From Podarcis bocagei (taxonomy: Eukaryota): DNA of 64,000 nt. Below the pieces are notes generated by a model. It did no database searches. It had not been told where the DNA came from and saw only the letters and a program-made list of their open reading frames with translations. How positions within the stretch are numbered: position 1 is the first letter of the stretch; the number at the start of each line of letters is the position of its first letter. A program made the translations under genes and the position numbers. The stretch lies in assembly GCA_964188305.1 (NCBI GenBank), contig OZ076900.1. One strand, given 5' to 3'. Of this stretch, positions 7,330-56,300 are shown in pieces.

Positions 7330-7957
7330 TCAATATGGCATAGCAGCAATCAAAGTCTGAGGTAACTACTAGCAATGGCGAAGAAACTCAATTCAGTTCA
7401 GCTTACTTTCCAAAACATTATGACAACTGAATTTTGCATACAACAATAGAAAGTAGTTGTGTTGGTCAATATGAAAAAAATCCTAAAAGCCATGGTATTG
7501 TAATACCTTTACTAAATCTCACAGAGGCTTGAGCAAGCTTTCCAGTTCTCCAGTATATTTGTGATCCATATATATTTTGCTTGGTCACCTTTAACATGTT
7601 TATCTTACTTTTCTATAAAATTATACTCAAAAAGGTAAATAACACATCCACAAAAGCATTAAACAATAATAATCTATCCAAAATTTAAAATTCACTTTGC
7701 AACTAAGAACAGTATTTCCCAATGGGAAATTCATAACTGAACATGATGCGACAATTTCTCTAAAACAGCAGCAGCAGCAACATAACCACACACAAGAGCT
7801 GTCAGAATTCTAGCTCATGATTCTAGAATTCTAGCTCAGGCCTTTAAAGTCCTAAACAGGGTTGGGGAACCTGTGGCCCTTGAGATGCTGTCCAGTTCAC
7901 AAAATAAGGTGGGTACCTAATTCAGGAAACTGGTTTAAGGGCCTTTATGTTCCGTGC

Positions 7958-8480
7958 AATGACAAACCTAGACAGCATCTTAACAAGTAGAGACGTCACA
8001 TTGCCAACAAAGGTCTGCATAGTAAAAGCTATGATTTTCCCAGTAGTGATGTATGGAAGTGAGAGCTGGACCATAAAGAAGGCTGATCGCCGAAGAATTG
8101 ATGCTTTTGCATTATGGTGCTGGAGGAGACTCTTGAGAGTCCCGTGGACTGCAAGAAGATCAAACGTATCCATTCTTAAGGAAATCAGCCCTGAGTGCTC
8201 ACTGGAAGGACAGATCATGAAGCTGAGGCTCCAATACTTTGGCCACCTCATGAGAAGAGAAGACTCCCTGCAAAAGACCCTGATGTTGGGAAAGATGGAG
8301 GGCACAAGGAGAAGGGGACGACAGAGGACGAGATGGTTGGGTAGTGTTCTTGAAGCTACCAGCATGAGTTTGACCAAACTGCGGGAGGCAGTGGAAGACA
8401 GAAGTGCCGGGCATGCTCTGGTCCATGGGGTCACGAAGAGTCGGACACGACTAAACGGCTAAACGACTAAACAACAACAA
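7958..8480 (+). mobile_element. BovB (RTE) LINE, 5'-truncated
   Basis: Open C-terminal ORF fragment (...HGVTKSRTRLN); CAA tail; 11-bp TSD ATGTTCCGTGC at 7947-7957 and 8481-8491. Confidence 0.95.
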
Positions 8481-14299: not shown

Positions 14300-15643
14300 T
14301 TTATTATCCACCCCTCAACCCAAGGTTCTAGTGTGTGTTACAGCTATTGAAACACAATATTAGTACATATTTCACACTATAAAAAACAACTTAAAAGAAC
14401 TTAAGATGACAGAAATAAGGTGGGTCCTTAACCCTGATCTAGTTCATTACTGTTTACATAGACTAGCAGTGGTTTTCCAGGATTCCAGGGAGGAGACACT
14501 CCTGGTCCTAACTGGAGATACCAGGGACTGGAGACTTCTCCATGCAAAGCAGACACTCTAACGCAATAGTTGAATCTACCTCACACTTTTCTGGAGCAGG
14601 GTGTGAACTGAAACACAGTCATTTTTTGAAATGTGTACTTCTCCAAATTTTGCAATGTCATTTAATGTTTACAAAAATGCACGTAGTAAGGTAAACTGTG
14701 CATAAAATGTATATATTAATGAAAATAATATACAAAATGCATTATGTTAGGGGAAATATAAATGTTACGGGAAATATACTTCGCAAAAACATGTATATTA
14801 GGCAACATTGCATACAAAAGGTTTGTTTATGAGGGGGAAATTCATACTGAAATGCTGTTGAATAATTTCATTTAGTATTTTGAAAGGAAGGGAGAAGCTT
14901 TTCACTGAGTTTTGTAAAGCAAACAGTTGCAGAATATGGCCAGAAATTATATGGCTGTTTCTAAAACTAGTTTATCTGCTTATCTCTTACAGTTGGACCA
15001 CAACAGAGAACCTGTCAAAAAGCATCTTCCCAATGCACATAAATAGCAGGAGAATAAAATGGTGCCCTTTAGTCAAAGCTAGTCAGTGTTTGGGTGGATA
15101 ATAAAACTAACACCAAAGGGCTCATCTAGCCATGAAGCTTCCTGCTGAGCTGAGTTGTGCAATACAGACCTGTACACATTTACTCAGAAGCAGGTTCCAC
15201 TATGCTCAAGGGGCTTACTTCCAGGTAAAGTGCATACAGAATTGCAACCTATACTTCCATGAAACTTTTGGCTGGGCTCTTTAGTGTTCATTCTCAACCT
15301 AGACGTAGCCTAAGGATGTGCAAATTGGTTTACCCACATGCACCCCAGCTCCCTCCCTGCAATATGAACCTGCCCTGCTACTCTTGAGGCCCTTCTTTGA
15401 GTTCCTCTGCCATCAGGCAGCCAGCAGAGGGGTAAAAGAGAAGGACAAGAGGCAGAGAGGAAGCTAAGAGATGCAGTAGGGGGTCACTCCAAGGACCCCC
15501 TCGTGGCTTATATTCACCCAGTAGAAATACAGCTCGTGCTTGGTATGAAAAGTTAGGGGATTTCAGCAGGAAGTTGGAGGACATGCACCGAATGGATATG
15601 AAGCAATGTGACCACTCCAAAACAAGTGCAAATATTACTGAAA

Positions 15644-18532
15644 AAAACTTTACACACAAGGGCCTCAGGAAGGGACTGCGATAGACCAATTTTTAAAAGC
15701 AAATGGATTACCAAAACTATCCCAAGAAAAGAAAACAATCTTGAATTATAGAATAACACAACAGGAAATCGAGAGTGCCATTCAGAATATGCAACTCGGC
15801 AAATCTCCAGGCCCAGACGGACTTACCTCCAAGTACTATAAGACTTTAAAAGACTATTTGATACAACCATTAATGGAGGTTTGTAACCAGATCATGGAAG
15901 GGAGGAAGGCACCGGAAACGTGGAAAGAAGCTTTCATCACATTGATTCCTAAACTGGAAACTGAAAAGACACAACTGAAGAACTATCGTCCCATCTCTCT
16001 CCTAAATGTGGATTACAAAATATTTGCAGACATTTTGGCAAGTAGGTTTAAAAAAGTGTTAAATGAAGTAATCCATAAGGACCAGGCAGGCTTTCTCCCA
16101 GGCAGACATTTGTTTGATAACACTAGGAACATTATTGACATTTTGGAACTTTTGCAAACTAACATTAATACCAGAGCAGTGTTAATTTTTATTGATGCGG
16201 AGAAGGCCTTTGACAACATTTCTTGGAAGTTTATGAAGAAAAATTTGGAAGGGATGGGAGTGGGACAGGGGTTCGAAAATGGTATAGAAGCAATCTATTC
16301 AGAACAAAAAGCTAAATTGATAGTGAACAATGTGGTGACAGAAGAGTTTAAAATCGAAAAAGGAACATGACAGGGGTGTCCTTTATCCCCTCTTTTATTT
16401 ATTTCAGTCCTGGAGGTGCTTTTGAGCATGATTAGGGAGGACCGGTTGATACAAGGAATACAGGTCGGAGTGAAACAATATAAATTGAAAGCTTTTGCAG
16501 ATGATTTGGTTTTAACATTACAGGAGCCAGAATCTAGCACAAAAAGAGTTTTAGAACTGATTCATGAGTTTGGTCGGGTGGCGGGATTCAAGTTGAATAA
16601 GCAAAAAACCAAGGTTTTGGGTAAAAACTTGACACCTTAGGAACAGATGAGTTTCAGAGGGAAACAGAATTAACTGTGGTTTAAAAAGTAAAATACCTGG
16701 GGGCCAATTTGTCTTCCAAAAATTTGAATTTATTTAAGGACAATTATGAAAAATGTTGGTTAGAAGTTAAAAAGGATTTAGAAACTTGGTCAAGATTGAA
16801 ACTTTCCTTGTTGGGTAGAATTGCAGCAGTAAAAATGAATGTATTGCCAAAGATGTTGTTTTTGTTTCAAACCCTACAGATTGTGGACAGAGTGGAATGC
16901 TTTGGCAAATGGCAGAAGGATATTTCGAAGTTTGTTTGGCAGGGCAAAAAGCCCCGAATAAAATTTAAAATACTAACTGATGCAAAAGAAAGAGGGGGAT
17001 TTGCCCTGCCAGACTTAAGGTTATATTATGAAGCTGCAGCCTTCTGCTGGATGAAAGATTGGTTACTTTTAGAGAACACTGATGTCCTGGATCTGGAAGG
17101 GTTCAACAATTCTTTAGGATGGCATGCATATCTGTGGTACGACAAAGTAAAGACTCATAAAATGTTCAAAAACCATATTGTCAGAAAAGCAATATTTATG
17201 GTCTGGACAAAATACAAAGACTTACTAGAAGGTAAGACCCCGAGGTGGTTATCACCAGTGGAGGCCAAGGCTCGAAAAAACCCCCAATATGGAGGCCGGT
17301 TGGCTGAAATATGGGGAAATAATAGAAAAAATTGGTGACAATTGGAGGTTACAGAGCTATGAAAAGTTAAAGCATAAGGTGCAAGACTGGTTTCATTATG
17401 CTCAAATTCAAGAGGTTTTTAAGTTGGACAAAAAAAACAGGATTCCAGGTGGAAAAATCGAAATTAGAGACAGAACTGTTAGAACCAAAGACTAAGGTAC
17501 TCTAGAGAATGTATAACTTGCTGCTTAAATGGAACACTCAGGATGAGACAGTTAAATCAGCCATGATAAAATGGGCTCAAGACATTGGGTACAACATTAT
17601 GTTTGAAGACTGGGAAAGGTTATGGACCACCGGTATGAAATTCACGGCATGTAGTGCCTTGAAAGAAAATATTATGAAAATGATATACAGGTGGCACATG
17701 ACCCCAGTCAAGCTTGCTAAAATATACCATTTGTCTGATAATAAATGTTGGAAATGTAAGGAGGCTGAAGGGACATTCTTTCACCTCTGGTGGACCTGTC
17801 CAAAAGTGAAGGCCTTCTGGGAAATGATCTACAATGAATTAAAGAAGGTATTTAAGTATACCTTTCCCAAGAAACCAGAGGCCTTCCTTCTGGGCATTGT
17901 CGGCCAGAAAGTGTTAAAGAAGGATAGAACATTTTTTATGTATGCAACAACAGCAGCAAGAATACTTATCGCAAAGCACTGGAAGACACAAGATTTGCCC
18001 ACACTGGAAGAGTGGCATACGCAATTGATGGATTATATGGAATTGGCTGAAATGACTGGCAGAATCCGAGATTTGGGAGAAGAGACAATGGAGGAGGACT
18101 GGAAAAAATTTAAGGATTATCTACAAAAACATTATAAGTTATATGAATGTTAATAATTTGCATGATTTGGAAAATCAAGCTCCAGCAATAAGATTTTATA
18201 TATTGGAAATTAAGATATTACTACGAAAGGATTAAAGTTTAAAATAACACTGTATTTATTTTAGGGCAAAAGTAAATTGATAATAAGTATTTTGAACCCA
18301 AAAGAGAATTATTTGAAAGTATTAATAACACATGAAACAAGGTATTAATTTGCTGATATTTTTATTGTAAAGAAAGCAGGGTGAGGGAGACGTGGGGAAG
18401 TCCAGTTGGTTATGAAAAAATGTATTGGAAAGTTGGATTTCTTTTATTTTTCTTTTCTTTTTTCTTCTTTTGTTATCTGACTTTATATTTGTATCTGGAA
18501 AAAGCAATAAAAATATTTAAAAAAAACAACAA
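15644..18532 (+). mobile_element. 5'-truncated L1-clade LINE (ORF2 RT and C-terminal zinc knuckle), pseudogenised
   Basis: ORF fragments KSPGPDG, NYRPISLLNVDYK, IDAEKAFD, KGT*QGCPLSP, AFADD and CWKCKEAEGTFFHLWWTC. AATAAA at ~18506 and an A-rich tail. 15-bp TSD CAAATATTACTGAAA at 15629-15643 and 18533-18547. Confidence 0.95.
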
Positions 18533-36020: not shown

Positions 36021-36489
36021 CTGATTCTTTGTCAGCTATATATAGCAAAATTATTCAAAACATCCACTCCAAGATAACACTCAACAATTCCACTTTGCAT
36101 TAACCAGTATTTTCTTCAATCCTCAAACCCAGATATCATAAGTTCATTTTCTTTTTTGCACGAAAAGTCTATAAGGGGTTCCATCTGAATTCCTTTCCAA
36201 AAGAGTTCAGTTTATCACCTACATGGTATATAACTGGATTTTTTTTTCCTTTGGCATTCTTATTTCTGGAATGGGGATGATTATCTGTTTGTCTAGTTTA
36301 AAAACAGAATGCTGCTTTTCTTATCTTTGTATGTGTCTGTGTGATTTATTATTGTTTCGTATGTTTATTTATGAGTATTTTTACTCTATATGTCTTCAAT
36401 CCTCCCTTCCTTCCTTTTTCATCTGATAGATTCAAAGATTTCCCTCACGAAGATCTATATTATCTAAAATATTATTTGTCTTTTGTAGC

Positions 36490-36793
36490 TGTTATGTATT
36501 CAGTGGTCTATGTTCACCTGAGCTTGAGTCTGGAGCCCCTGTGTTCTAAGTAGACACATGATATCCAATCACATAGCATTATCAAGGTTTTGGCTATTGG
36601 CATTGGCTCTTAAGTTCTGAGTTACAATTCACAGCTTGGAATTTTTGACAGCCAGTCACATTGAGAGTGGGAGTGGCCCAGGCTTTCAGAAATACATTTA
36701 AGCAGTTGCTTTCCCCAGTTGTTCAGTTATGTTACCTCAAGTCTCTTGCTATTATCATTGTGTCTGGCCTCATAGAAACCCATGTACACTTCA
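36490..36793 (+). repeat. 5' LTR of the Gypsy element (304 bp)
   Basis: TG...CA termini; homologous to 41045-41217 and 42149-42247. Confidence 0.88.
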
Positions 36794-36794
36794 C

Positions 36795-36812
36795 TGGCTA
36801 CAAGCATGGGAT
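36795..36812 (+). other. Primer-binding site, probably for tRNA-Ser(GCU)
   Basis: TGGCTACAAGCATGGGAT immediately after the 5' LTR matches TGGCGACGAGGATGGGAT (complement of the tRNA-Ser 3' end as I recall it) at 15/18 positions. Confidence 0.6.
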
Positions 36813-36971
36813 GCTAGGCTAGTTATGCAGCCCTGGCTGGCTTCCACAAGCTGAAATCACTGCTGGGGAACTGTCACCTCAACTGAGCTGAAGCACAACT
36901 GGGGACTTGCCACCTGAGCTGGCTGGAATCACTGACTGCAGCCACAAGGCAGGTCACACAGAGCAGACCTC

Positions 36972-39900
36972 ATGGCCACCCAGGACCACATCAAGCAATT
37001 TGACCCCACAGTCCCAGGGAAATGGAACTCCTATGCCACCAAGCTTGAGTTTTTCCGTGTGGCCAATAACGTGACCGACCCTGTACTGAAGCGAGCCATG
37101 CTGTTCAGTGTGTGTGGGCCTGCCACGTTCAAGATTCCCCAGGCCCTCGAGGCCCCAACCAAGCTAAGTGAGATGACATTCAACACAATAATGCTGAAGT
37201 TGAGGACACACTTCGCTTCCCAGCCATTGGAGATTGCTTGCCAGCACGAGTTCTACAAACGAAACCAGGCCTCAGGCAAATCCATAGAGGCCTTCATCAC
37301 AACCTTGCGGCAGGACACCCACCACTGCAACTTCAGTGATCTGGAGATAATGCTCCACAACCGTCTTGTGTGCAACCTAAGGGATGAGAAGCTACAACAG
37401 CGCCTTTTTGCAAAGAAGGATCTAGCCTTCCAGGTTGCCTTAGACGAGGCCCTCATGGCAGAGACAGTCAACAAGATGATGAGAGAGATTCGCCAAGTGC
37501 AAAGCCCAACCATGGCATGGAAGGCCGAAGCAGTGCACTCAGAGAAGATTGTAGACAGTGAGGAAGGTGAGGAGGTCCTGAGACTGTGCCTTGGCTTGTC
37601 CAAGTGTTTTGGCCAACAGAGAGGTGCAGAGGTGAATTGCACCAGTTGCGGGGGCCAGCATGAATGCCAGTCATGCCGTTTCTGTGATGTCCAGTGTTGG
37701 GAATGTGGGAAAACTGGCCATATTGAATGCACCTGCCAAATGAAGGAGCAGTGGGGCGCTCCCTGGCATCCAACTTTGGGGACTGGGGATGGTCACTGCG
37801 GGACTCCAGGTGCAATAGAATGCCATGCCATATCGGAGTGTACCTGCACACAGGAGCCAGCTGCCACATCTATCCAGAATGCACAGCCAATCTGCGAGAA
37901 GATTCGAGTAGCCGTGATCATCCAGGGAACCCCATGCGAAATGGAGGTTGACTCCGGGTCAGCGCTCTCTGTTATTTCTGCTGAGACATACCATCACATC
38001 TGCCAGAAGGGAGGAGCCCCCTGTTTGCAGCCCTTTGAGGTGATCCTGACAGACTTCCAAGGGAAGCAAGTGCCCATTCAGGGCATTGGCATGTTCACTG
38101 TCCAATTTAAGCATTTTAGCGGACCGCTGCAGCTGGTAGTTGTCAAAGGCCACCACACCAGCCTACTTGGCCTCAACTGGTTCGACGCACTGGGCATCCA
38201 TATCACCGGGGTCCAGCACATAGGCCAGTCCAGCTATGAGGCCATCTGTGATGAGTTTGCAGCCGTGTTTGATGTGTCACTGGAGTGCTACAAGGGCCCA
38301 CCGGTCGCACTGAGCCTCAACCCGGCTGTAGTACCGATCCGCAAGAAGGCTCGGCAGGTGCCATTTGCCCTGAAGCCCAAGATTGATGCAGAGTTGGATC
38401 ACCTCATCAAACAAGGCGTCATTGAGCCAGTCCTGCATGCTCAGTGGGAAACCCCAATTGTCACTTGCCTCAAGGCAAATGGGAATGTGAGGATCTGTGC
38501 TGACTACAAGTGCACCCTCAACAAAGCCTTGCAGCAGCATGCGTATCCTGTTCCAGTCGTGAGTCACCTTCTTGCATCGCTGGCCAGTGGGAAAGTCTTC
38601 GCAAAGCTTGACTTGACCCAGGCATATCAACAACTCCCAGTTGACGAGGCCACCTCTGAGGCACAGACTATCGTGACCCACCACGGGGCTTTCCGTGTCA
38701 AGAGGCTACAGTTTGGTGTCAGCGTGGCCCCAGGCCTCTTCCAAAACCTCATGGAAGATGTCCTGAAGGGTCTCCCTGGAGTAATTCCATATTTTGGTGA
38801 TGTCCTCATTGCGGGGGAGTCCGAGGCAGAGCTTGCATGCCGTCTTCGAGAGGTCCTGTGCCGTTTTCAAGATGCCGGCCTAAAGGTGAAGAAAGAAAAA
38901 TGCCAGCTGGGGGTGCCCGAGGTTGAGTTCCTCGGGTTCCTGATCAACGCTGATGGCATCCACCCCACACCAGCAAAGGTAAAGGCCATCCATAGTGCTC
39001 CACCACCACGCTGTAAGCAGGAGTTGCAGTCCTTCCTGGGCCTGTTGAACTTCTACCACTCTTTTATTCCACATAAGGCGGCCACTGCGGAGCCCCTGCA
39101 CCAGCTATTGAACAAGAAAGCTCCTTGGATCTGGGGCTGTGCTCAGGACACTGCTTTCAATGCTGTCAAACACCTGCTCTCCTCTGACAGTGTCATAACC
39201 CATTTCAATGAGACCAAGCCTGTTGTGCTTGCCTGTGATGTCTCCCCATATGGAATCGGTGCAGTCCTCAGCCACCAGTTGCCGGATGGACGGGAGGCCC
39301 CTATTGAATTCTACTCCAGGACCTTGTCATCAATGGAATGCAATTATGCCCAGATCGACAAGGAGGCCCTGGCTGTCGTGGCAGGGGTGAATAAGTTTCA
39401 CAACTACATCTATGGCCACCACTTCACAATTGTGACTGACCACAAGCCTCTGCTGGGCCTTTTTGCTCCTGATCGGCAGACTCCTCAGATCCTGTCCCCA
39501 AGGATGCTAAGGTGGTCCATCTTTCTCAATGCATATGACTACGCACTTCAACACCGTCCTAGCAAGAGCTTGAGCCACACAGCTGCCCTAAGCCACCTGC
39601 CATTGCCAGACATAGACGCTGATCCGTCCCCAGCCCACAGCGTGATGCTGCTGGAGACTCTGCCCCAGCCACCACTTCACACCACAGATGTTGCCATGCA
39701 CTCAGCAAAAGATCGCACCCTCTCCCGTGTCCTCAACTGGGTGTGGAGAGGGTGGCCAGTGGGTCACCTTGATGCCAAGTTCTCCCCATTCATCTCCCGG
39801 CAACATGAACTGTCAGTTCACAAGGGATGCCTGTTGTGGGGGAACCGGGTTGTGATTCCTGCTAAGCTGCAGACCAGAGTGCTGGAGGCTCTGCATGTGA

Positions 39901-40988
39901 GTCACCCAGGTATCGTCCGCATGAAAGCTCTGGCCAGGAGCTATGTCTGGTGGCCAGGCATTGATGCGGAATTAGAAGAATGGATCCGGTGCTGCCAGAC
40001 CTGCCAAGAGTTCCGACCGGCCATGCCCCAGTCCCTGATCCAGCCGTGGGAGATGACGCGAAAACCATGGTCAAGACTCCACATTGATTTTGCTGGCCCG
40101 CTCCAAGGTCAGACATTCTTGATCATTGTGGACGACTTCTCAAAGTGGCTTGAGGTGGTGCCAGTCTCAGCAATGAACTCCAAGGTCGCCATCTGGGCCC
40201 TGAAGTGGGTCTTCACCACACATGGCCTGCCAGACATCATTGTGTCCGATAATGGAGCACAGTTCACATCGGCTGAGTTCCAGAAGTTCATGGCTGACAA
40301 CCTAATCCAGCATGACACATCATCACCATTTCACCCATCAACAAACGGACAGGCCGAGAGAATGGTGACGACCACCAAGGAATCCCTCACCCGGATTGTC
40401 CAGGGGGACTGGAACCAGCGCTTAGCAGATTTCCTGCTGCAGCAGCACATCACGCCCTGCACCGCCACAGACCGAAGCCCAGCAGAGCTCCTCATGAACC
40501 GGAAGCTGGCATCGCTCCTGGATCGGCTGCACCCCAAGCTTGCATCTGATTGGCCTCCAGGCCAGGAGCCTCCAGCGGCCCCCATGTGCTTCACCCCAGA
40601 TGACCCTGTCTACACCCAGAACTATGGAGATGGCCTTGCCTGGATCCCTGCTGCTACCAGGGCAACTTGGCCAGTCTCTTACAAGGTTGCCATGCAAGAC
40701 AGTCGGGTCCACCGCCAGCATGTGGACCAAGTGTGGCACCACCTAACTGATGCCCCAGCTCCAGCTGCCACCACCACACCAAAGCACAGGGATGAAGTGA
40801 ATGATCAGCTCGGCTCACAGGCTGATGCACCCAAGGAGGACCCTGTGTTCCCAGGAAGTACAGAGGAATGGGGCCCTGGCACTGCACCGCCAGACAGCGC
40901 CAAGGCAACAACACTGGTGACACCCATGACACCAGCTCCAACACAATCTCTAAATGACCCAAGGGAGCGAGCTCTGCCGCTCTCATAA
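36972..40988 (+). CDS. Gypsy gag-pol polyprotein (gag with CCHC knuckle, aspartic protease, RT, RNase H, integrase), single open frame of 1338 aa
   Basis: CWECGKTGHIECTC zinc knuckle; EVDSGS protease; RT (RICADYK, KLDLTQAY, LQFGV, YFGDV where YxDD is mutated); RNase H (ACDVS, EALA, TDHKPL); integrase HHCC plus D-D-E (IDFAG, SDNG, QAERM). Domain order PR-RT-RH-IN is Gypsy. Confidence 0.92.
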   Translation: MATQDHIKQFDPTVPGKWNSYATKLEFFRVANNVTDPVLKRAMLFSVCGPATFKIPQALEAPTKLSEMTFNTIMLKLRTHFASQPLEIACQHEFYKRNQASGKSIEAFITTLRQDTHHCNFSDLEIMLHNRLVCNLRDEKLQQRLFAKKDLAFQVALDEALMAETVNKMMREIRQVQSPTMAWKAEAVHSEKIVDSEEGEEVLRLCLGLSKCFGQQRGAEVNCTSCGGQHECQSCRFCDVQCWECGKTGHIECTCQMKEQWGAPWHPTLGTGDGHCGTPGAIECHAISECTCTQEPAATSIQNAQPICEKIRVAVIIQGTPCEMEVDSGSALSVISAETYHHICQKGGAPCLQPFEVILTDFQGKQVPIQGIGMFTVQFKHFSGPLQLVVVKGHHTSLLGLNWFDALGIHITGVQHIGQSSYEAICDEFAAVFDVSLECYKGPPVALSLNPAVVPIRKKARQVPFALKPKIDAELDHLIKQGVIEPVLHAQWETPIVTCLKANGNVRICADYKCTLNKALQQHAYPVPVVSHLLASLASGKVFAKLDLTQAYQQLPVDEATSEAQTIVTHHGAFRVKRLQFGVSVAPGLFQNLMEDVLKGLPGVIPYFGDVLIAGESEAELACRLREVLCRFQDAGLKVKKEKCQLGVPEVEFLGFLINADGIHPTPAKVKAIHSAPPPRCKQELQSFLGLLNFYHSFIPHKAATAEPLHQLLNKKAPWIWGCAQDTAFNAVKHLLSSDSVITHFNETKPVVLACDVSPYGIGAVLSHQLPDGREAPIEFYSRTLSSMECNYAQIDKEALAVVAGVNKFHNYIYGHHFTIVTDHKPLLGLFAPDRQTPQILSPRMLRWSIFLNAYDYALQHRPSKSLSHTAALSHLPLPDIDADPSPAHSVMLLETLPQPPLHTTDVAMHSAKDRTLSRVLNWVWRGWPVGHLDAKFSPFISRQHELSVHKGCLLWGNRVVIPAKLQTRVLEALHVSHPGIVRMKALARSYVWWPGIDAELEEWIRCCQTCQEFRPAMPQSLIQPWEMTRKPWSRLHIDFAGPLQGQTFLIIVDDFSKWLEVVPVSAMNSKVAIWALKWVFTTHGLPDIIVSDNGAQFTSAEFQKFMADNLIQHDTSSPFHPSTNGQAERMVTTTKESLTRIVQGDWNQRLADFLLQQHITPCTATDRSPAELLMNRKLASLLDRLHPKLASDWPPGQEPPAAPMCFTPDDPVYTQNYGDGLAWIPAATRATWPVSYKVAMQDSRVHRQHVDQVWHHLTDAPAPAATTTPKHRDEVNDQLGSQADAPKEDPVFPGSTEEWGPGTAPPDSAKATTLVTPMTPAPTQSLNDPRERALPLS

Positions 40989-41217
40989 TCTTGAGGACTA
41001 TGTGTGTTGATGGGGGTTAGGGTTCGTGCCAAAGGGGAAGGGAGTGTTATGTATTCAGTGGTCTATGTCCACCTGAGTTTGAGTCTGGACTAAGGATTCT
41101 GAGTCCCTCTCTTCTGATTCAGTACATATCCATTATCAGGGTTGGGGCTACTGGCATTGGCTCTTAAGGTCCAAGTTACGATTCACAGCTTGGGGGTTTT
41201 GACAGCAAATCACGTTG

Positions 41218-41500
41218 TTCATTTATTTCAGTAATTCAACTTAAAAGATGAAACTAATATAGGAGATAGACTCATGACATGCAAAGCATTTTATGTCAAG
41301 CCTTTATTTGCTATAATTGTAATGATCATGGTGTATAGCTGATGAAAACCCCAAATTAACAATCTCAGGGCCCAAACCAAGTACTGAGTACATATGCATG
41401 CTTCTACTTCTCAGAGGTGCAATATTGCTCTATTTGCAGTCCTTGTTTTGCTGATTTCATTTAATATTCTAATTTTCTGAGATTGTTAATTTGGGGTTTC
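41218..41500. mobile_element. Internally deleted Tc1-like DNA transposon remnant inside the 3' LTR
   Basis: Perfect 23-bp inverted repeat AAACCCCAAATTAACAATCTCAG (41346-41368) / CTGAGATTGTTAATTTGGGGTTT (41477-41499); the AT-rich context resembles Tc1 terminal regions. Confidence 0.5.
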
Positions 41501-42065
41501 TGCTTATTAAAACAATGCACTTTCAAGTCAGATATTTGACAAATCTTCCATCTGCCTCATTAAGTGTCACCTTCACAGAACGCTTTCAATCCATGCCCTT
41601 ATCGGTCATAGATGGATGATACAATGGAATACCTTTTGAAGAGAGACTCTGTCTGTGTGGGCAACAATTTGTAGAGGACATTTGCCATTACTTACTGCAA
41701 TGTCCACTATACAAATTGATTCATAAAACTGCTTTTCATGAAGAAAACAAATCTAACCAGGGTGGAGAGGGTGAAATGGCTGCTGAGTGATACTGATGGC
41801 TTTGTGACTTTTAAGGTGGCTCTCTATGCCACCTTATAAGGCAGCTAGGAAGATTAGTAATAAAGAACTGGATGGGCTAGAGGTCAATTGCAAAAGAGTC
41901 TCTGAGATCTAATCTGCACATTTTATTTGAGAATTACTTTTTATTCTGTGTAATAAGAAATTTTGGTAGATTTAATCATGGTTTTACTGCATATGTAGAG
42001 ATTACTGTCTGCTTGTTTTTCTTCTTTCTTCTTTGAACGTTGCCATGGCCTTTGGCTAGTGCAAT

Positions 42066-42150
42066 AATATTATAATATAATATAATATAATATAATATAA
42101 TATAATATAATATAATATAAGATATGATATGATATAATATAATAATATAA
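42066..42150. repeat. (TATAA)n microsatellite, probably the tail of a LINE 3' fragment (~41920-42065)
   Basis: Pentamer array TATAA/GATAT preceded by a T-rich, 3'UTR-like segment. Confidence 0.75.
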
Positions 42151-42914
42151 GCAGTTGCTTTGCCTTTGTTGTTCAGTTATGTTAGCTCAATAAAGTCCCT
42201 TGCTGTTATCACTGTGTCTTGCCTTGTAGAAACCCACGTACACTCCAGTAGTTTCTCTAGATTGTTAGGAAAAGGGGTGCATACACCCCTATCTTGTTGT
42301 GCTGTTTCATAACCATCTATAACAAATTTTCAAAAGCTTTATGGTTTGCAAAATTGACAATATGGCAGAATGCAGTCATAGAATATGCTTTTATGGTCTT
42401 ATTCACAAAGCGTTTTCACATTAACATGATTTTCTTTTTATAATATGTATACTATAATTCTAACTTAATGATAATGACAATTAGTGATACCATAAACTAA
42501 GCACTATATGACAAATCTCTCCCCCCACAATTTGAAAAGCATAACTCATTATTTTAAATTTAATGTTACCTTTCTTGGGTTGACAAAGAAAAACTAGAAC
42601 CACACACTTTATCAGTTGTTATTAAATTGTTTTGCACTCTCCGTGCAGTTATATGTAGGGTTTTTACCACAAACATAAGATCTGGAGTGATGTCACAATA
42701 TAGCAATTAGAATCAGGGGTAATGGCAGCTTTCCATTTTTAGCAAGAGTTCAAGCTGTGCATCACTTTGATGTTTTTCCTACATCTATATATTAAGTAGC
42801 TCACTATAGTAAATTATGCTAAATCTCGGTAGCATATACAAGAGACATAAGGTTAGAAAGTCAAATATTTTTCAAAACCTTGTTTCTTTTTGCCTCATGT
42901 ATAGGTAGCACCTT

Positions 42915-43005
42915 TTGATGAAACTGCGGGAGGCAGTGGAAGAAAGGAGTGCCTGGCGTGGTCTGGTCCATAGAGTCACGAAGAGTCGGACACGACTAAA
43001 CAACA
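42915..43005 (+). mobile_element. Ultra-short BovB 3' end (or BovB-tailed SINE fragment)
   Basis: GAAACTGCGGGAGGCAGTGGAAG...GTCGGACACGACTAAACAACA; 14-bp TSD ATAGGTAGCACCTT at 42901-42914 and 43006-43019. Confidence 0.9.
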
Positions 43006-48292: not shown

Positions 48293-50650
48293 GCGCTTGC
48301 TGTTTATGAGGGAACACCATCGGAAACAAGTGCTGAACTACATCCGCTAATTTCGGGGACAGGGGTGCACCCCCTCCCCCCCCCCCGCGGCCTGAGGGGC
48401 GTGGCTGTGGCGGGCGGGAGCGTTCGGAGAGCCCCCGGCACTCCAGGCAACGTGGACGCGCCTCTCCCCCCCGCTCCTCCACAGCAGCGGCAGCTGGGAC
48501 GGTTAATTTTGCACACATCCCTCCTGCTCCTCCAACGGTCGCCCGCGCGCTGACGAGTTGTTTACTTCCTCAGCGGCTCCACCCCTCCACCTCCCCTCGG
48601 CTCTCGCGCTCGCCGATTGGCTCTTCCTTTGGCCAACCACGACGCCTCTCAGGTCATCAAACCTGTATGGGGCGGGGAGTGCGGTCGTAGGGAAGGAGGG
48701 GGATTACAGGAGTGCCTAAAAAAAAGAAAGAATAGCAGCAGTATAAGAAAGTGAACCTTCATTTCTTTAACGCTGATTGGGCAACTCGTGGAAGCATCGA
48801 GGACTGATTGGTAGATTACGGTGCTACTCATTTTCATCCCTTGTGGCCTTTTCTGTGTATGTGTTGTTTTTCACTCATTCCTCTGTACACGCAGGCATTG
48901 AAGGGTCCCCGCCTCCGCCCGGCGTATGTTTCAGTGTGTGAGGCGGTGATTGGCCGACTCCCAGAGCCCGCCTCCCACTTCTCCCCCCTCCTTCTCCCTT
49001 TCCCCCTCCCACCTTCTCACACACAAACACATCTTCACTGCATCCCGCGCCCAGCCGCCCGCTATTAATTACCTTCGCCTCTCATTTGTCCCGCCTCCCG
49101 CCTATCATTATGAAAGGCACGCGCACGCACACAACCCGCCGACCGGGAGTGGGGTGTGCGTGGCAGTGACTGCGGATTGGACCACTTGCGAAGCGGACTT
49201 CATCTCCGATTGGTTCCTCGCCCGCCGGCTCCTCCATTCTCAGAACTTTGCTCTCCGGCCCACCACACACACACTCACACACAAACACACGCACAAACAC
49301 AGCCCCGCCCCCGGGCTGAACGAAGCACCGCCTCTCGCTGGAGCGGGTTTTTTTTGGCTTCTTTTTCTTTTCTTTTTTTTAAAGCGGCTCCTCTCCCTCC
49401 CTCCCGAAGGAGGCGGGGTCACGTGATGTTTTCGCCGTGGTGCCGCCGCGGCTGCTTGCCTGTGTGGAGAGCGAGCGAGTGAGGCAGAGCGGGGCGAGTG
49501 GACGAGGAGCCCTGCGCGCTCCGAACGGCTGGCAGTGAGTGAGCGGGTGGGCGCACGCCCCGCCGGTGGGCCGGCTTCGCGCCTCCCCCTGCGGGGAACG
49601 GCCGGCGTGGACGCAGACTGGGGCCACCCATGTCCAGCCGGGCCCGGGAGACCCTTCGCCTCTGAGGAGGGCGGCTCTTCCACCCCCCTCGCGCTCCCGC
49701 CCTCCCCCCCCCCCGCTGCACAAGCGCGGCGCCGCCTGGCTCGGCGGTCCGGACCCTGCCCTGGCCCCTTAAAATGGCGAGCGGGATGCTCGGCGGAGAA
49801 GGCGGCTGCACCGTGCTGGAGGCGAGAGACCAGGCTGCGGGCATTGCCGCTGGAGCACCAGGCGGCGGAGGCGGCTACAGCCACAACCAGCGGGCCAGCG
49901 CGTCCAGGCTTGCCGCTACTGCTGCTACTACTGCTGCTGCTGCTACCGAAGAGGACCAGGAGCTGATGGAAGGCGCCCCTTGCCCGCCGCCCGCGCAGCC
50001 CCCGCACCATCTGATGCTGCTTCTGAGGAGATCCCCCAGCAGCTCCCTCTGCCTCGTCCAGGAGGAGGACGCCTCGGCCACCGGGGGCAACGCTGGCGCG
50101 GGGCGAGGGGGCGCCGTGGCTTCATCGCGAGCCGGCCCCTCGGCGCCCTCAAGCCGGGCAGCTGCCCCACCAGCGGCGTCCGCTGTCGCCTTCGGGGACG
50201 ACGTGAGGAAATGCGGCTACCTAAGGAAGCAGAAGCATGGCCACAAGAGGTACTTCGTGCTGCGGGTGGAGAGCCACCTGGCCCCGGCCAGGCTAGAGTA
50301 CTACGACAGCGAGAAGAAGTTCAAGAGCAGCATGAGGGCGGCGGCGGCAGCGGCGGCGGCTGGTGGGAGCGCAGCCCTCTGCTGCCCACCCCCGAAGCGG
50401 GTGATTCCTCTGTACCAGTGCTTCACGGTTAGCCGGAGGGCAGATGCCAAGCACAAGCACATCATCGCCCTGTACACCAAGGATGAGTACTTTGCAATGG
50501 TTGCCGAAAACGAGACTGAGCAGGAAAGCTGGTACCAGGCAATCAGTGAGCTCATGAGCCAAAGCAAGAGGGGCTTCTTGGAGCAGGAAGACCAGGCTGA
50601 TCCGCAGCTGGATGACGACGACGAACATTACGGGACTGCTCTTCGGCCAG
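48290..50650. promoter_or_regulatory. CpG island and promoter of IRS4
   Basis: Abrupt switch to very GC- and CpG-rich sequence. Six ATTGG (reverse CCAAT) boxes at 48616, 48776, 48807, 48949, 49176 and 49209; GC boxes (e.g. GGGGCGGGG ~48669, CCCCGCCCC ~49303); E-box GTCACGTGA 49418-49426; TTGTTTAC 48558-48565. Confidence 0.85.
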
Positions 50651-53371
50651 GGACCGTCTTCAAAGAAGTTTGGCAAGTAAATGTGAAACCCAAGGGACTG
50701 GGGCAGACAAAAAATTTGACTGGGGTGTACAGGTTGTGTCTTTCCACCAAGGCCATCCACCTTGTTAAGCTGAATAGTGAGGTGCCCTCTGTCCACTTAC
50801 AGCTAATGAACATTCGGCGGTGTGGGCATTCAGAAAATTTCTTTTTCATTGAGGTGGGCAGATCTGCCTCCATTGGGCCAGGTGAGCTTTGGATGCAAGT
50901 GGATGATTCAGTGGTGGCCCAGAATATGCATGAAACCTTCCTAGAAACCATGAAAGCTTTGAAAGCCTTCTCTGAGTTTAGACCTCGCAGTAAGAGCCAG
51001 TCTTCCGGTGGTGGTAGCAGCACCAACCCCATTTCCTTCATCAGTACTAGGAGGCACCTGGGTAACCTGCCACCTAGCCAAACTGGCTTACAAAGAAGAT
51101 CCAGAACTGAAAGTGTTACTGGGGGGACCCCTCCAACCACCAAGAGTAGTAGCTCTTACCGTTTCAGAACTTCCAGTGAAGGGGAGGGGACAATGACCAG
51201 ACCATTTAGGTCAGTTACTGGAAGTTTGATTCATCTGAATACTGCAAGGATGAATTTGGGGCGTCAAGAAGGAAGTGGACGATATGTTAGAGCAGCATTT
51301 AGTGCATCTTATCACACCAGGTCTGCATCTCTACCAGTGTCTCACTTCCCTTCCACTACTAGCCCCATCAGTGTTTCTTCAAGTAGTGGCCATGGATCAG
51401 CTTCCGATACCTTCATCAGGCCTTCCAGTTCATCCGTCTGTGGGTCCCCAAGTGATGGAGGTTTCATTTCTTCCGATGAATATGGTTCCAGCCCTGGCGA
51501 CTTCAGGTACTTCCGTGTGAGGAGTAATACCCCAGATTCCTTGGGCAATACGCCTCCAATCAGAGAAGAAAATTGTTTAAGTGAATATATGTCTATGAGC
51601 AAGCAGCAAATGGATAATAATAGTTCAAGAGATGATTACCGGGAGGCTGAAAAATGCTTCAGAAAAAGAACTTACTCTCTAACTAAGCCTGCTTCTATAC
51701 CAGCACAGCAGAAAACAACCCAAACAGCAACTTCATTAGATGAAGTTTCTTCAGGAAGCCATGGACGCCTGCCTTTTTCTGAATCGCCAAAATTCAAAAA
51801 TAACCCTGAACCAGTGTATGGGGAATCTGCCCTTGATTCTGTATGCAATCAAAGCAGGAATAAAGCCAGAGATGATGGATACATGCCAATGATGCCAGGA
51901 GTTGCATCTTCTTTTGCAAGCAACAGTGATTATCTGCCAATGACTCCTAAAAGTGTGTCTGTTCCAAAGCAGATAAACAGTTCCTGGCCATCATCACAGG
52001 CTGATTCCAAAGGATATATGATGATGTTTCCTAGGGCTATCTCTTCACCTGTACGTAGTCCTTTAACTGGCTTTAATAAAAGTGGCAATGAGAAGTTGGC
52101 GAACAATGAGTATATGGATATGTCACCTGGAAACTCAGCTGCTCCAAAGCAACCTAGTGATTCAAATTATATGCATACCAACACCAGTTCCAAAAACTTT
52201 AGCTCATATTTCTCTCTCCCACGAAGCTTTAAGACTCAGTCAGAAGAAAATGGTGAGCATGATGAATACGTTCCAATGTCATCACCAGGAAAATTATTGT
52301 ATAGTGGAGCTGAAAATGACAACAATATCAGTAATGATGTTCTGGCTAATGGCCATTCCAAATCATCTATGCTGAAAGCTTCAGATGAAGGACTTGAACA
52401 GAACAAAATTACCAGGCCTACAAGACTTCCATTAGGCACTAGAGGTAGTAACACTATACCAAGAATGTATGATCGTACAATTCCACTTGAGCCATCTAGT
52501 CCTGGTGAATATATAAATATCGACTTCGGTGAAAAGGCAAGTAATACACCTTATTCTTTATCTGCAGAAGGATCGCCATCATCTCTTGGCTCCAGTAGTG
52601 ACCATAGGCAGTCACCACTTTCTGACTACATGAGTGTTGATCTTGATGTTCAGTCACCAAAGGTTGCTAAAGAACTATCCAACTCCTTGACAGATATTTC
52701 AATTTATGCAAGTTCTAGTATTCCCAGAAATCCACCTGATTCAGATTATGCTAGGCTCTCGTTTGGTACTGCTTGTGTTAGCAAAGGAAATGGTAGGATT
52801 GATGACTATACAGAAATGACCTTCAACATGGCAGCAATGCCACCTGGACCATTTACCACCGAAAGCAAAAATGGCTTAAAGATTGATAGTCCTCCTTCCA
52901 TTGTTAATAGACTGTGCATTGTTGACCAATATGCTGGTAGCAGTGAGTTCTCAGTTCCTAGTCCTGATCCGCCAGTAGTACCTAAAGTTATTCGTGCTGA
53001 TCCACAGGGAAGGAGAAGGCATAGCTCTGAAACATTTTCTTCCACTGGCACTGTTACCACTTCCTCTTCTTTCTTTACTGATAGTAGCAAAAGGCACAGC
53101 TCTGCCTCTTTTGACAATGTGTGGTTGAAACCTGAAGAACACATTTCAGATGGCCATGAAAGCAAGATGTCCAGAGATACTTCAACTGGATTTCAGAATG
53201 GCTTGAACTATATAGCTCTAAATTTACAAGATAATTCTCTAAACTGTGAGGAGAGCCCTAGTTCACCAAACTGCCACCTCCCAAATGGTACTTTGAATCT
53301 GGAAAGTGGAGTGTATGTGAGCATAGACTTCAGCAGATCAGATGGTTTGAAGTGCAACTCTGCAAGAAAAG
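49774..53371 (+). CDS. IRS4: Insulin receptor substrate 4, large first coding exon (about 1199 codons); the last codon(s) and stop are probably on a downstream exon not identified in this window
   Basis: PH domain (DDVRKCGYLRKQKHGHKRYFVLR...EYFAMVAENETEQESWY, which matches the IRS4 signature), IRS-type PTB domain (FKEVWQVNVKPKGLGQ...NIRRCGHSENFFFIEVGRS...MHETFLETMKAL), many YxxM motifs (YMSM, YMPM, YLPM, YMMM, YMDM, YVPM, YTEM) and a YINI Grb2-type site. Good Kozak context (aaaATGG). IRS-like sequence ends at ...SARK, followed by AAG|gtttgt (phase-1 donor), as in the IRS1/IRS2 gene layout. Confidence 0.93.
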
Positions 53372-56300
53372 GTTTGTATTTTTTTAAATCACTCACACAA
53401 ATTAATGCATGTATAATTTCAATATATTATTGTAAATCACCATTTTCTTCTTTAAATTTGCCCCTTTTCCTATTTAGTGCAGTATTTTCACTGGCAGCAT
53501 CACATAAGGAGTGTTCTGCATGCACAATTCAGGCCCAAGTGTTTCCTATCTTTTAATTTGAAAACATGTATTGACTGCTTTTTTTGTTCAATTGTCGTTA
53601 TGAGTATGGGGTAGTAAAATAATCACAGAATATATGAGAAGCAGTAAATTGTTCTCATACTTGTCTTCATTACCAACTTTGGGGTCACTGCCACACTCCT
53701 TTTTCAACATTCTAATAAAATATAGACATCAGTTCATCTAAATAACAATAATTTATTTGGAATCTGACTACTTTAGTTTTTATGAATGGACTGGAATTTA
53801 TCCCCTGGTGCATGGTTGTGGGTACCTTTTAAGGGAGGAATCTGCTTTCTGAGGTTCTGCGGAACAAACCTGCTACTTCCAGCCACAATTCCCCTTGCTC
53901 CCTCTACAATGAAGTCCAACTTAAAGCCACATCAAGGCTGAAGTTTACCTTGAGATGTGCAGAATAAAGTGATTTTATTCATGTATAGCAGTCTTATGTA
54001 ATTTTTTAAAAGTCACTGTTTTCATAACTGCATTATACATATAATCTGATTTTTAACAAGGGGTTAACAGTTGTGGTTTCCCTTGCAAAGCTTTCTGGGA
54101 AATGTAGTTTTGTGAAGAGGTTGCAGGTTTCAGAGCATTATGAAATCTCTTCCTCGTTCCAAAGAGAGAGGTGTGTGTATGTGTATTTGAGGTGTAGGTA
54201 ATTCTGACAGTTAAACTGGCATGCATTTCTAATGTAGATGCTAATTTGGAAGGCATACTGTACCATTCTCTCCATACTGTATTTTACAGAAAAGTAAATG
54301 GAGTTCAGTGGGCTTGCTTCCTAGTATGCATACATAAAATTGCAGCTTTAACAATGGTTTTCTCATTTGTCCTGTGAGTTCAGTGACAATTTTTTAAGAA
54401 GGCTTGATTTAGTTGTGCATCACAGACACTTCTGCTGTGATACCCTGGTAATAGCTCCTTTAGAATGTAGCGATGCAGAATGGAAGACATGAGAAGGCTG
54501 TTAGTACAGTATTCTGACAGTCGTAAGCATTCTAGATTACTTTAGCTAGAATCTTACAGCTGCAATAGTGTTATAGTGCCTTGATCAAACCCTTTCTTTT
54601 AAAACCTAATAACATGTCTGCAGACTTGGTCTTAGTTTATAGTTTGTTTGTTTTTTAGCTTTTTCTGGAGGAAAAAGTGGAAGTCAGATGTTTTCCACTA
54701 TAAATCTTAATCTAAATACTGTTTTAATGGAGAGTGACTATTCAGTCATTGTAGCTAATTATTTGTGCAAATAGTACTTTTAAAATCCAATATAACACAG
54801 TTGAGTACTGTAATAGGTATCCTGCTTTTGTTACTTAGAAAATTATACCTGTATCGCTTGATACAAAGACATGCAAAGAATGTACTGGACTTTGATAAAC
54901 TGTCTGAAATGCTGAATCAGGGCTTCTAGGTACCCCTTAACTCAATCTGAATATATTCAGAGGCTTTAAGAGATTGTATGAGTTTAGATTCTTTGGCGAG
55001 TCTCCTATTGGGAAAAGATTACAGTATATAAAAGACAAGTCAGTCTGTTAGCATTGCTTGGGGGTTTTGAAAAGTTTGTTATTTCCTTTGGTATACTTTT
55101 CTCTTTGCCCCTCTTTTTGCTGTGGTTAAATCCAAGTTGTTTGACTGCTCTTCTAAACCAGTGAATGACAGCATACTTGGAGTATCTTCCTCTTGTATGT
55201 TAAACTCCATTAAATTAGAAACAGAAGTGGTAAAGAAATGTACTGAATTTGGCCTTCTCTTGAATTTTTCAAACTTGGATTGTACTTTGCTCAATATAAT
55301 TCCAAAAAACACCAGTGTAAGGGGGGGGACTTACCCTCCAGCTCTGATCATACTACCAGTTTTAAACTTTGGACGCTTTCATCAGTTTTTTCAACATCTG
55401 TTGAAAACATTTGCCTGTTACTGCTGCAACTGAAGCATAACCAAGATGATTACAAGTTAAGTTTTTTAAAAACATGCCTGACAGCGGTTTGCATATGGCT
55501 AATCATGTGTGTCTATGTACTTCTTTATGTGAATCTTTGGTCCCGATAATCTTTAAAATATGGAAGTGGTTAAGAAAATTCAGTCATTGGTAATAGTAGC
55601 TGAGTCTGCTAGGTAGATTTCAAGTTAGTAAGTACTTCATTGAAAAATTCTTTTAAAGTGTATATAAGGAAGAGATTTTGCTAGAGGCAGGGGGCACAAT
55701 CCAGCAGAGACTTTGAGAGTGCTTAAGCTCATTGACTTTATGCTGGAATGTGGCCAAATCATTCATTATTTTCATCTGACTGTTACATAGCCAATCAGTA
55801 GATTCAGACAAAGCCCTGGTTTCAGACTTAAAAGAAATGCCTTGGTAGTTGAAAATAGTAATGAGCTTTTGAACTCCTACAAGTAGAGATTTGAAGCATC
55901 TCCTCAGTTAGAACAGCAGAGCGGGCGGGGAGGCCAAGCAAAATAATGAAATGTTAGAGTTCCACAATAGGTGACTTCTGCCTTTTGGGGCTGCTATATT
56001 CTCACTTCACCAGCAAGAGCAAAAATTGCAGAACTCAACAGCATGCCTGTCCCATGCACAAGTCTACTTGAGTTCCTTCGAGGGTGGGGCAGGTACAACA
56101 TTGTTTATGCATTCTGTAGATTACTAATGATCCCAGTTTGACCTTGGAGGTGTAGAATTAACTTCAGTATACTGTGATAAAATTCAGCCATGAAACATGA
56201 CGGATGTAGTCACATTTATTTTTCAGGTGCTTTCTCTAATGTGACAGTATTTTTCAAAATTTTAAATAATTCTTTTTTTATTAGAAAATTTTGACTTGTA

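Follow-up and report, generated by a model that had tools for sequence, protein, structure and literature searches.

The genes that hosts have made out of Metaviridae are numerous in mammals and reportedly few in sauropsids (ARC and GIN1/2; PMC3670739), and most known cases centre on gag. Eutherian RTL1/PEG11, of Metaviridae descent, has Gag- and Pol-like sequence in one ORF and is incapable of retrotransposition (PMC10570562), its CA being accompanied by further pol domains (PMC11011659). In these respects it is matched by the lizard locus considered here, which lies in a 64,000-nucleotide window of Podarcis bocagei DNA (the window being the whole stretch that was analysed). Why RTL1 keeps a polymerase-dead Pol region is, to our knowledge, an open question. 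The K02A2.6-like Ty3/Gypsy elements of squamates, ticks and amphibians have the same gag-PR-RT-RNase H-IN single frame, the same TG...CA LTRs and the same 5-bp target-site duplication. Unlike them the lizard locus is single copy, has lost an RT aspartate, has LTRs that differ by 13% and are interrupted, and is probably common to several species rather than spreading. A literature search over openly available papers and the main texts of surveys found no paper on this locus; the main text of a survey of gag co-option (PMC8321522) has no lizard.

Our best reading, made from sequence comparison, is that the locus would be a lacertid RTL1-like domesticated gene with recognisable LTRs. It occupies one old Gypsy LTR insertion that spans 36490-42247 of the window, adjoining IRS4, with the following features.

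36485..36489, no strand: 5' target-site duplication GTAGC, from flank reading
36490..36793, + strand: 5' LTR, TG...CA, TATA box decayed and AATAAA absent; likely transcript start region (LTR comparison; the X1 contig begins at 36762)
36794..36971, + strand: primer-binding-site region and leader, the primer-binding label being given from position and on what we take to be the family's anatomy
36972..40988, + strand: open single-frame gag-pol ORF, 1338 aa, no stop (ORF translation and Pfam)
36972..37886, + strand: gag, aa 1-305; predicted capsid-type helical fold, two zinc knuckles; near-neutral evolution
37887..38246, + strand: aspartic protease, aa 306-425, with DSG (37950-37958) kept in 7/7 sequences
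38247..39131, + strand: reverse transcriptase domain, aa 426-720; YFGD at 38790-38801 in 7/7 sequences; 2 N : 7 S
39132..39836, + strand: RNase H and tether, aa 721-955; 3/4 acidic residues here; 4 N : 5 S
39837..40571, + strand: integrase, aa 956-1200; HHCC and DDE both retained here; 3 N : 6 S
40572..40988, + strand: C-terminal tail, unconstrained, 5 N : 1 S; its end out of register with the native tail
40990..41010, + strand: native LEDYV-type tail, lying here in the +1 frame; the Lacerta agilis protein has it in frame
41031..41044, + strand: polypurine tract
41045..42247, + strand: 3' LTR, interrupted; AATAAA at 42189-42194
41218..42144, no strand: later insertions inside the 3' LTR, among them an (ATA)n microsatellite
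41218-41499: young inverted-repeat element in the 3' LTR
about 41495-42060: older repeat in the 3' LTR
42248..42252, no strand: 3' target-site duplication GTAGT, 4/5 match

Two TG...CA LTRs, a polypurine tract and a target-site duplication identify an LTR element, and the domain order, together with a best solved match to Ty3 Gag-Pol (E 1e-76), gives it a Ty3/Gypsy origin. It is not an active autonomous Gypsy, given its YFGD, an LTR K2P of 0.13 and a closest long-matching copy at 86%. A sequence-only reading had put LTR divergence at roughly 28 of about 220 positions (about 13%); the recount gives 26 differences in 217 well-aligned sites. The poorly alignable LTR block that it reported is placed at about 36533-36576, the 4-bp gap that takes out the 5' AATAAA is seen in the LTR alignment, the 3' LTR is broken between 41217 and about 42145, and the flanks do read GTAGC and GTAGT, which with the LTR pair fit the single insertion event it proposed. 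As AATAAA is absent from 3/4 other LTR copies too, its loss from the 5' LTR is not special, and a promoter/poly(A) specialisation of the two LTRs was rejected. The leader carries short upstream ORFs of 3-41 codons, with five ATGs including those within the LTR. A recombinant or young interior was also rejected: the window branch has dS 0.16-0.36 in 20 triplets, which exceeds half of the distance between the LTRs, and other copies stand equally far (about 75-86%) from interior and from LTR. The triplet omegas (0.19-0.45) include the element's active past and are not taken as proof of selection. Mis-assembly fell away likewise, a close relative's contigs and database proteins agreeing with the frame.

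The frame itself is as first described: 36972-40988 runs without a stop, eight CGA codons are retained, the only break is at the C-terminus, where LEDYVC* lies in the +1 frame, and the knuckle, DSG, YFGD, HH/CC and DDE motifs were re-read in the protein. The nearby L1 is indeed disabled, its region at 15.6-18.2 kb being broken into pieces of at most 242 codons. Pfam finds RVT_1, RT_RNaseH, Integrase_H2C2 and rve. The RT reads as polymerase-dead because YFGD lacks the first aspartate of YxDD, which is essential in Ty3 (PMC5371799); the fourth RNase H acidic residue is lost as well, and among catalytic motifs only that of the protease is intact in all seven sequences.

Close proteins, with 91-98% identity and YFGD in every one, are found in Podarcis muralis, P. 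raffonei, P. lilfordi, L. agilis and Zootoca vivipara, and have in common 23 departures from family-conserved columns. The same insertion site is seen in a close relative, where a contig spans the flank-LTR junction (36127-36534); beyond it orthology would follow from identity, the shared changes and, where given, location on 47-51 Mb contigs. The frame is full length in the window, P. muralis and L. agilis (1345 aa). The sequence-only reading would have been undone by disrupted orthologues, and this is partly what the databases hold: two of the six models are full length and four, from three species, are gapped or truncated, as read from protein models rather than the underlying DNA. That of P. 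raffonei has a 28-aa gap, that of P. lilfordi ends at residue 1146, and two Zootoca models have different gaps each and a short tail. All of these apparent breaks are private, none recurring in a second assembly; where one Zootoca model has a gap, the other is unbroken. L. agilis has further lost one integrase and one more RNase H catalytic aspartate.

How do other copies fare? Nine of 10 same-family copies from the genome are broken (the tenth spans just 48 codons). Over the 5047 aligned codons of all ten there are 47 stops and 70 indels that shift the frame, a rate of about 30 disruptions of either sort per 1290 codons. The locus is single copy among the best-scoring candidates, a lower bound on copies, and the genome copies examined included no intact member of its own family. 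In a young related Gypsy family, with copies about 98% identical (18 and 5 loci compared), 37/132 scored copies have the full frame. Identity to full-length K02A2.6-like relatives is 50-58% in protein; among the 240 matches listed none outside lacertids exceeds 70%, and the nearest non-lacertid matches are ordinary elements. The lack of a close non-lacertid match among these 240, with LTRs still 87-88% alike, speaks against common descent with mammalian SIRH/RTL, as judged from identities. A search for shorter proteins gave no extra orthologue in the best 120 of 1485 matches (8000 candidates scored). The closest paralogue (on C19) was considered as a sex-chromosome counterpart and rejected, the shared flank being only short repeats; the locus itself is probably Z-linked.

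Substitutions between the window and one close relative (one species pair, 57 differences) are unevenly distributed. The protease-to-integrase core has 10 N : 21 S, an omega of 0.20 (CI 0.09-0.45; p 2e-5 to 6e-5), which for this one pair amounts to purifying selection after insertion, while gag has 14 N : 6 S and an omega of 0.91 (CI 0.33-2.9), with no sign of the selection on a capsid domain seen in genes of the ARC, PNMA or PEG10 ORF1 type; gag and tail together (19 : 7) differ from the core (Fisher p 0.003). Dead-copy controls give 0.64-1.51 in five pairs. The silent excess in the core remains when CpG sites are left out (8/10 transitions silent, p 0.005), as it does when the protease is removed (9 : 18, p below 4e-4); transversions show none (1/7 silent). 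In the protein, 106 variable states fall in 895 core columns versus 115 in 395 others (0/20000 shuffles), and on deep branches the core is moderately slower than gag and tail (3.8 vs 5.7%, 3.2 vs 4.7%, 2.6 vs 8.3%). Orthologue changes weakly avoid family-conserved core columns (18/234 vs 78/660, p 0.05), with no avoidance in RT or RNase H. At its 22 conserved columns the protease departs in none of the seven sequences, a signal that taken alone is not significant (0/27 vs 10/92, p 0.07). Constraint on the gene is best read as moderate and patchy. With the frame open, sister copies broken and a silent excess in pol, selection is therefore likely to be keeping the frame open, by acting on pol, as these comparisons suggest.

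One contig of probable RNA run X1, 4485 nt long and free of gaps, covers 36762-41246, the whole frame, and X2 and X3 contigs also cover 38790-41090, all three runs being from one study and their RNA status a tool's guess. None of X1, X2, X3 and DNA run X8 has an indel or stop at the listed differences. In two runs on record as RNA, of which 12% and 6% were read, no read fits the ORF throughout. No run recorded as RNA was among those listed as containing the sequence, a blank to which we give no weight. As for splicing or fusion to IRS4, the probable RNA contigs have no joint or splice within 36030-42050, an interval that stops short of IRS4. At 36231-36632 X8 has cover and X1 none, a contig hole that carries no weight. 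Transcription presumably starts at the 5' LTR, the X1 contig start at 36762 not fixing the position.

The 5' LTR would then drive transcription in a limited set of tissues, and the transcript would yield a gag-pol polyprotein that the intact protease motif would cleave, freeing folded, polymerase-dead RT-RNase H and integrase parts. These probably act for the host in binding nucleic acids or as scaffolds, the way RTL1 and PEG10 are put to use in mammals, with gag likely needing just to remain in frame so that pol gets translated. That the Gypsy insertion has been domesticated we regard as highly probable, and the broken paralogues, the close proteins of other lacertids and the pol omega support the suggestion, made from the letters alone, that selection holds the frame open. 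A host role for protease plus dead Pol stands at about even chances; as an explanation of the whole, a self-cleaving lacertid gene with its polymerase-dead Pol parts used by the host has the balance slightly in its favour.

A different use, for defence, has been envisaged, in which RT and integrase subunits, dead yet still folded, would be expected to poison complexes formed by mobile Gypsy relatives. Fold-level constraint over RT, RNase H and integrase while catalytic residues are dropped would suit it, as would a young related family, 70-72% identical in RT and present in at least 132 copies in the same genome, the homodimeric action of Ty3 RT (PMC5371799) and a patchy loss similar to that of DRT2 (PMC13709905). 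However, no intact own-family copy has been found though selection is recent, co-assembly is doubtful with a young copy only 40% identical in gag and 64% in pol and with gag drifting, Drt2 is specific to its subfamily and shares 91.5% identity with its target (PMC13709905), and the young family expanded regardless. The dominant-negative factor first proposed is thus conceivable and the weaker idea; we think defence unlikely. Fading domestication, of a gene useful in the lacertid ancestor, now weakly held and lost lineage by lineage, could be seen in the gaps and truncation in 3/5 named species, the catalytic losses in L. agilis and the moderate deep-branch constraint, but the most recent comparison shows the strongest constraint, the breaks are those private ones noted above, and the four runs lack indels and stops, all of which makes it improbable.

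A neutral relic open by luck, or a frame kept just to stabilise a cis-acting RNA near IRS4, draws on CpG-decay-type substitutions throughout, on 23/329 conserved core columns departed and on orthologues being known only where annotators called long ORFs. Over the tree neutrality predicts about 50 disruptions, and at most 7 are observed. About 9 nonsense changes are expected at 6.5% divergence, with a chance of none (stops only) of about 1e-4 at LTR divergence; extrapolation from the young family gives about 2e-4; neither luck nor RNA stability accounts for a replacement deficit confined to pol, and the contig without joint or splice adds to what makes either very unlikely. The least probable alternative has gag forming particles and pol as a passenger, in a capsid gene of the ARC or PEG10 kind. 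Gag does model as a two-lobed helical capsid fold (pLDDT >90 over most of aa 11-170) whose best hits in the PDB are capsids, dArc1, Copia and PNMA2 among them, all at E >0.001, and most sequences retain the knuckle cysteines. Yet the model leans on the alignment of intact relatives, one knuckle is broken in P. raffonei, and gag changes show no avoidance of conserved columns (14/64 vs 52/211). With gag evolving at roughly the neutral rate and 9/46 family-conserved positions lost on the stem, in every orthologue, as in dead copies, the capsid-forming role suggested earlier is not supported; that constraint would sit on the pol core had not been foreseen.

Setting these aside, we return to a young lizard gene, likely recruited from a retrotransposon. 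Its fuller portrait, as a provirus midway to a Z-linked, LTR-driven gene in which copying-dead RT, RNase H and integrase are selected while the capsid decays, in convergence with RTL1, is tentative and falls a little short of an even bet. Restriction factors (Ty1' Drt2, Fv1, enJSRV Gag) resemble it in fixed locus, purifying selection on the ORF and lineage-specific losses (PMC13709905), which in the lizard case are apparent ones, but they derive from gag and lie close to their targets, whereas the lizard gag drifts and our searches turned up no close active target. In GIN1/2, CGIN1/NYNRIN and ASPRV1, too, selection falls on integrase or protease and not on the capsid (PMC3424704, PMC3670739), but these are ancient and of a single domain where the lizard locus keeps a whole polyprotein and its proviral frame. 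The DSG protease motif, essential in mouse PEG10 (PMC10570562), is kept here too, but PEG10 uses a -1 frameshift and is without RT, RNase H and integrase motifs, while the lizard locus has one frame and constraint across pol. From RTL1 it differs in independent origin, in lacertid lizards; in having LTRs (RTL1 has none), a polypurine tract and a target-site duplication that can still be made out; and in a whole integrase kept, an unconstrained gag, far younger age and patchy breakage. With LTRs present, broken sister copies as neutral yardstick and apparent keeper and loser species, early domestication would become measurable and the reason for keeping a polymerase-dead Pol testable. The lacertid case would centre on pol and, if true, an LTR-run provirus midway to a gene would show what dead Pol does for its host.

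The Gypsy element is a real, unusual feature. In lacertid lizards it probably represents a young domestication centred on pol. The sequence-only reading had described an open gag-pol frame between old LTRs, a 3' LTR later inserted into, a terminal tail out of register, an RT with an altered YxDD motif and a disabled L1 nearby, all of which is borne out by the anatomy below.

Features of the window (the IRS-type ORF is on the same strand as the element)
7947-8462 and ~42900-43000: LINE 3'-end-like fragments, presumably an RTE/BovB-type 3' end
15600-18200: broken L1-type ORF2, in several pieces
36490-42247: single LTR element, flanked by GTAGC / GTAGT
36972-40988: ORF of 1338 codons, zero stops
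40990-41010: native tail of the ORF, +1 frame
41218-41499: young inverted-repeat element with perfect 23-bp arms (41346-41368, 41477-41499), in the likely 3' untranslated region; many copies, most halves 88-99% alike
~42060-42150: (ATA)n microsatellite where the LTR TATA box would be, out of which it may have grown
49774-53556: IRS-type ORF with PH and PTB domains, 7.5 kb downstream of the element's 3' LTR, with a GC-rich promoter region from ~48.3 kb; we take it to be IRS4

Over 217 well-aligned sites the two LTRs show 26 differences (K2P 0.13). A polypurine tract precedes the 3' one, which has later taken in the young inverted-repeat element, the microsatellite and an older repeat. The ORF matches models of RT, RNase H, integrase zinc finger and integrase core, its best solved relative being Ty3 Gag-Pol. 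Its YFGD aligns with Ty3 YLDD and alters the first aspartate, and since Ty3 polymerase activity is reported to require that residue (PMC5371799), the RT is predicted to be polymerase-dead. The fourth acidic residue of RNase H is also lost, a change described for Ty3 as merely lowering activity (PMC5371799).

Could so long a frame have stayed open by chance? Given the ORF's codon make-up, a divergence of 6.5% per LTR should have brought ~9 nonsense changes, and the probability of none is ~1e-4. Own-genome DNA searches gave, among the best 40 candidates of each, just a few interiors of the same family, none above 86% identity over long matches, and many LTR-like copies (74-86%). Eleven stretches were retrieved; the ten containing ORF sequence, four of them in a single cluster and hence not independent, have 47 stops and 70 frameshifting indels over 5047 aligned codons, or ~30 disruptions per 1290 codons. 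In a related family that is younger (RT 70-72% identical to the element's, own copies ~98% alike), just 37 of the 132 copies scored retain the whole frame. Among copies of the same age open frames are thus uncommon, so that the proposed comparison with other copies went in favour of the earlier suggestion; nor is the interior younger than its LTRs (window branch dS 0.16-0.36), as a converted LTR or mis-assembly might have made it. The cluster (L034, L035, L036 and L039, at G000:C9:78.03-78.13 Mb of the same genome) served as the neutral control, and in three of its members a common internal deletion fuses the start of the LTR with the end of RT. At L032:3587-7302 a young-family element is nested, on the opposite strand, in a broken old-family copy.

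Among the protein matches listed, local alignment gave 98% identity for P. muralis, 84% for Z. vivipara and at most 69% for the next.

Cluster of probable lacertid orthologues
P. muralis: 1338 aa
L. agilis: 1345 aa
P. raffonei: 1310 aa
P. lilfordi: 1146 aa, partial
Second Zootoca model: 1114 aa

Labelled uncharacterised K02A2.6-like in the databases, these proteins are 91-98% identical over aligned columns; the contig sizes available for them are 47-51 Mb (the window's is 54 Mb). All have YFGD, and 23 departures from family-conserved columns, common to all, mark them as apparent descendants of one decaying copy. L. agilis has the native tail in frame, and the shift is therefore probably confined to Podarcis. 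Synteny was seen for organism A, a close relative, only: its contig spans the flank-LTR junction at the same site. The insertion is probably older than 18-20 Myr, the age given for the P. muralis/P. lilfordi split (PMC10214862). Against a clean story speak gaps or truncation in four of six database models and the loss in L. agilis of one integrase and one RNase H aspartate. The disrupted orthologues that were to count against selection are thus present in part; visible disruptions, in the species with an annotated long ORF, number at most seven (two in the tail), against a neutral expectation over this tree of ~20 stops and ~30 frameshifts. Two tick proteins (P0005 and P0008, from Rhipicephalus and Ornithodoros) are 55% identical to the element, no more distant than lizard Gypsy families of other kinds, which hints at horizontal transfer within the wider clade.

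Organism A contigs differ from the window at 65 positions in 4485 nt, with zero indels. The 57 listed ORF differences were classified, with at most two further ones outside the list.

Replacement (N) and silent (S) differences, window versus organism A
Gag: 14 N, 6 S (omega 0.9-1.0)
Core (protease to integrase): 10 N, 21 S (omega 0.20-0.23 under two mutation weightings)
Protease: 1 N, 3 S
RT: 2 N, 7 S
RNase H and tether: 4 N, 5 S
Integrase: 3 N, 6 S
C-terminal tail: 5 N, 1 S

The core value (CI 0.09-0.45, p 2e-5 to 6e-5) sets it apart from the rest of the ORF (Fisher p 0.003), and five pairs of dead copies, counted alike, give 0.64-1.51; the suggested dN/dS check, on this one pair, thus supports selection. 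A silent excess remains in non-CpG transitions of the core (8 of 10) and was not seen in its transversions (n=7). Across seven proteins variation is 0.12 per core column versus 0.29 elsewhere (0/20000 shuffles), and the core is slower on all three deep branches, by just a third on two. With conserved columns defined from 61 of 118 listed relatives, picked by length, the window departs at 23/329 in the core (dead copies at 13-26%) and at 9/46 in gag. In integrase, changes among orthologues fall less often on conserved columns (5/83 vs 28/162, p 0.01), and the same perhaps holds for protease (0/27 vs 10/92, p 0.07); no avoidance was found in RT, RNase H or gag. These patterns make it likely that the frame is under selection to stay open, with constraint spread broadly over pol and gag free to drift. 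Of the earlier suggestion, selection on the frame is supported and a capsid-forming role is not; the modelled capsid-type fold, whose structure matches all have E above 0.001, tells of past identity, not present use.

Four runs of one study, probably RNA, contain 29-62% of the words (organism A whole DNA runs, 60%). One, X1, yields a single gap-free contig from 36762, inside the 5' LTR, to 41246, in the 3' LTR; contigs of X2 and X3 cover 38790-41090, and no joints were seen in the three within 36030-42050. Two recorded RNA runs (12% and 6% read) gave no read fitting the ORF throughout. Together these runs suggest that an unspliced, LTR-to-LTR, tissue-limited transcript may exist.

IRS4 presumably belongs to the chicken 4p block. 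Chicken 4p genes are reported on the lacertid Z (PMC6534595), so the element is likely Z-linked; the P. lilfordi Z scaffold is given as 50.7 Mb (PMC10214862). Of the 132 matches to the young Gypsy family, 44 (hand count) fall on a single contig, G000:C19 (96.5 Mb, 6% of the genome), which may be the W, with the window's G000:C20 as Z.

What, then, might the protein do? The protease motif is the sole catalytic motif intact in seven of seven sequences; a protease-only gene would leave the 9 N : 18 S from RT to integrase unexplained. Defence, the dominant-negative restriction factor of the sequence-only reading, fits a fold kept without catalysis, but that proposal weakens in lacking a target: no intact own-family copy was found among the best 40 candidates of each own-genome search, and identity to the young family is just 40% for gag and 64% for pol, whereas the known yeast example is described as acting specifically on a target that it closely resembles (PMC13709905). 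A host role like that of RTL1 and PEG10 is therefore favoured over defence. In such a role the polyprotein would likely be self-cleaving and, purely by analogy (PMC10570562, PMC11011659), its dead Pol products might bind partners or nucleic acid.

Literature searches listed no description of this locus; one survey reports few such domesticated genes in sauropsids (PMC3670739) and the main text of another does not mention lizards (PMC8321522). By descent the element falls outside the SIRH/RTL family; its resemblance to RTL is at the level of gene anatomy.
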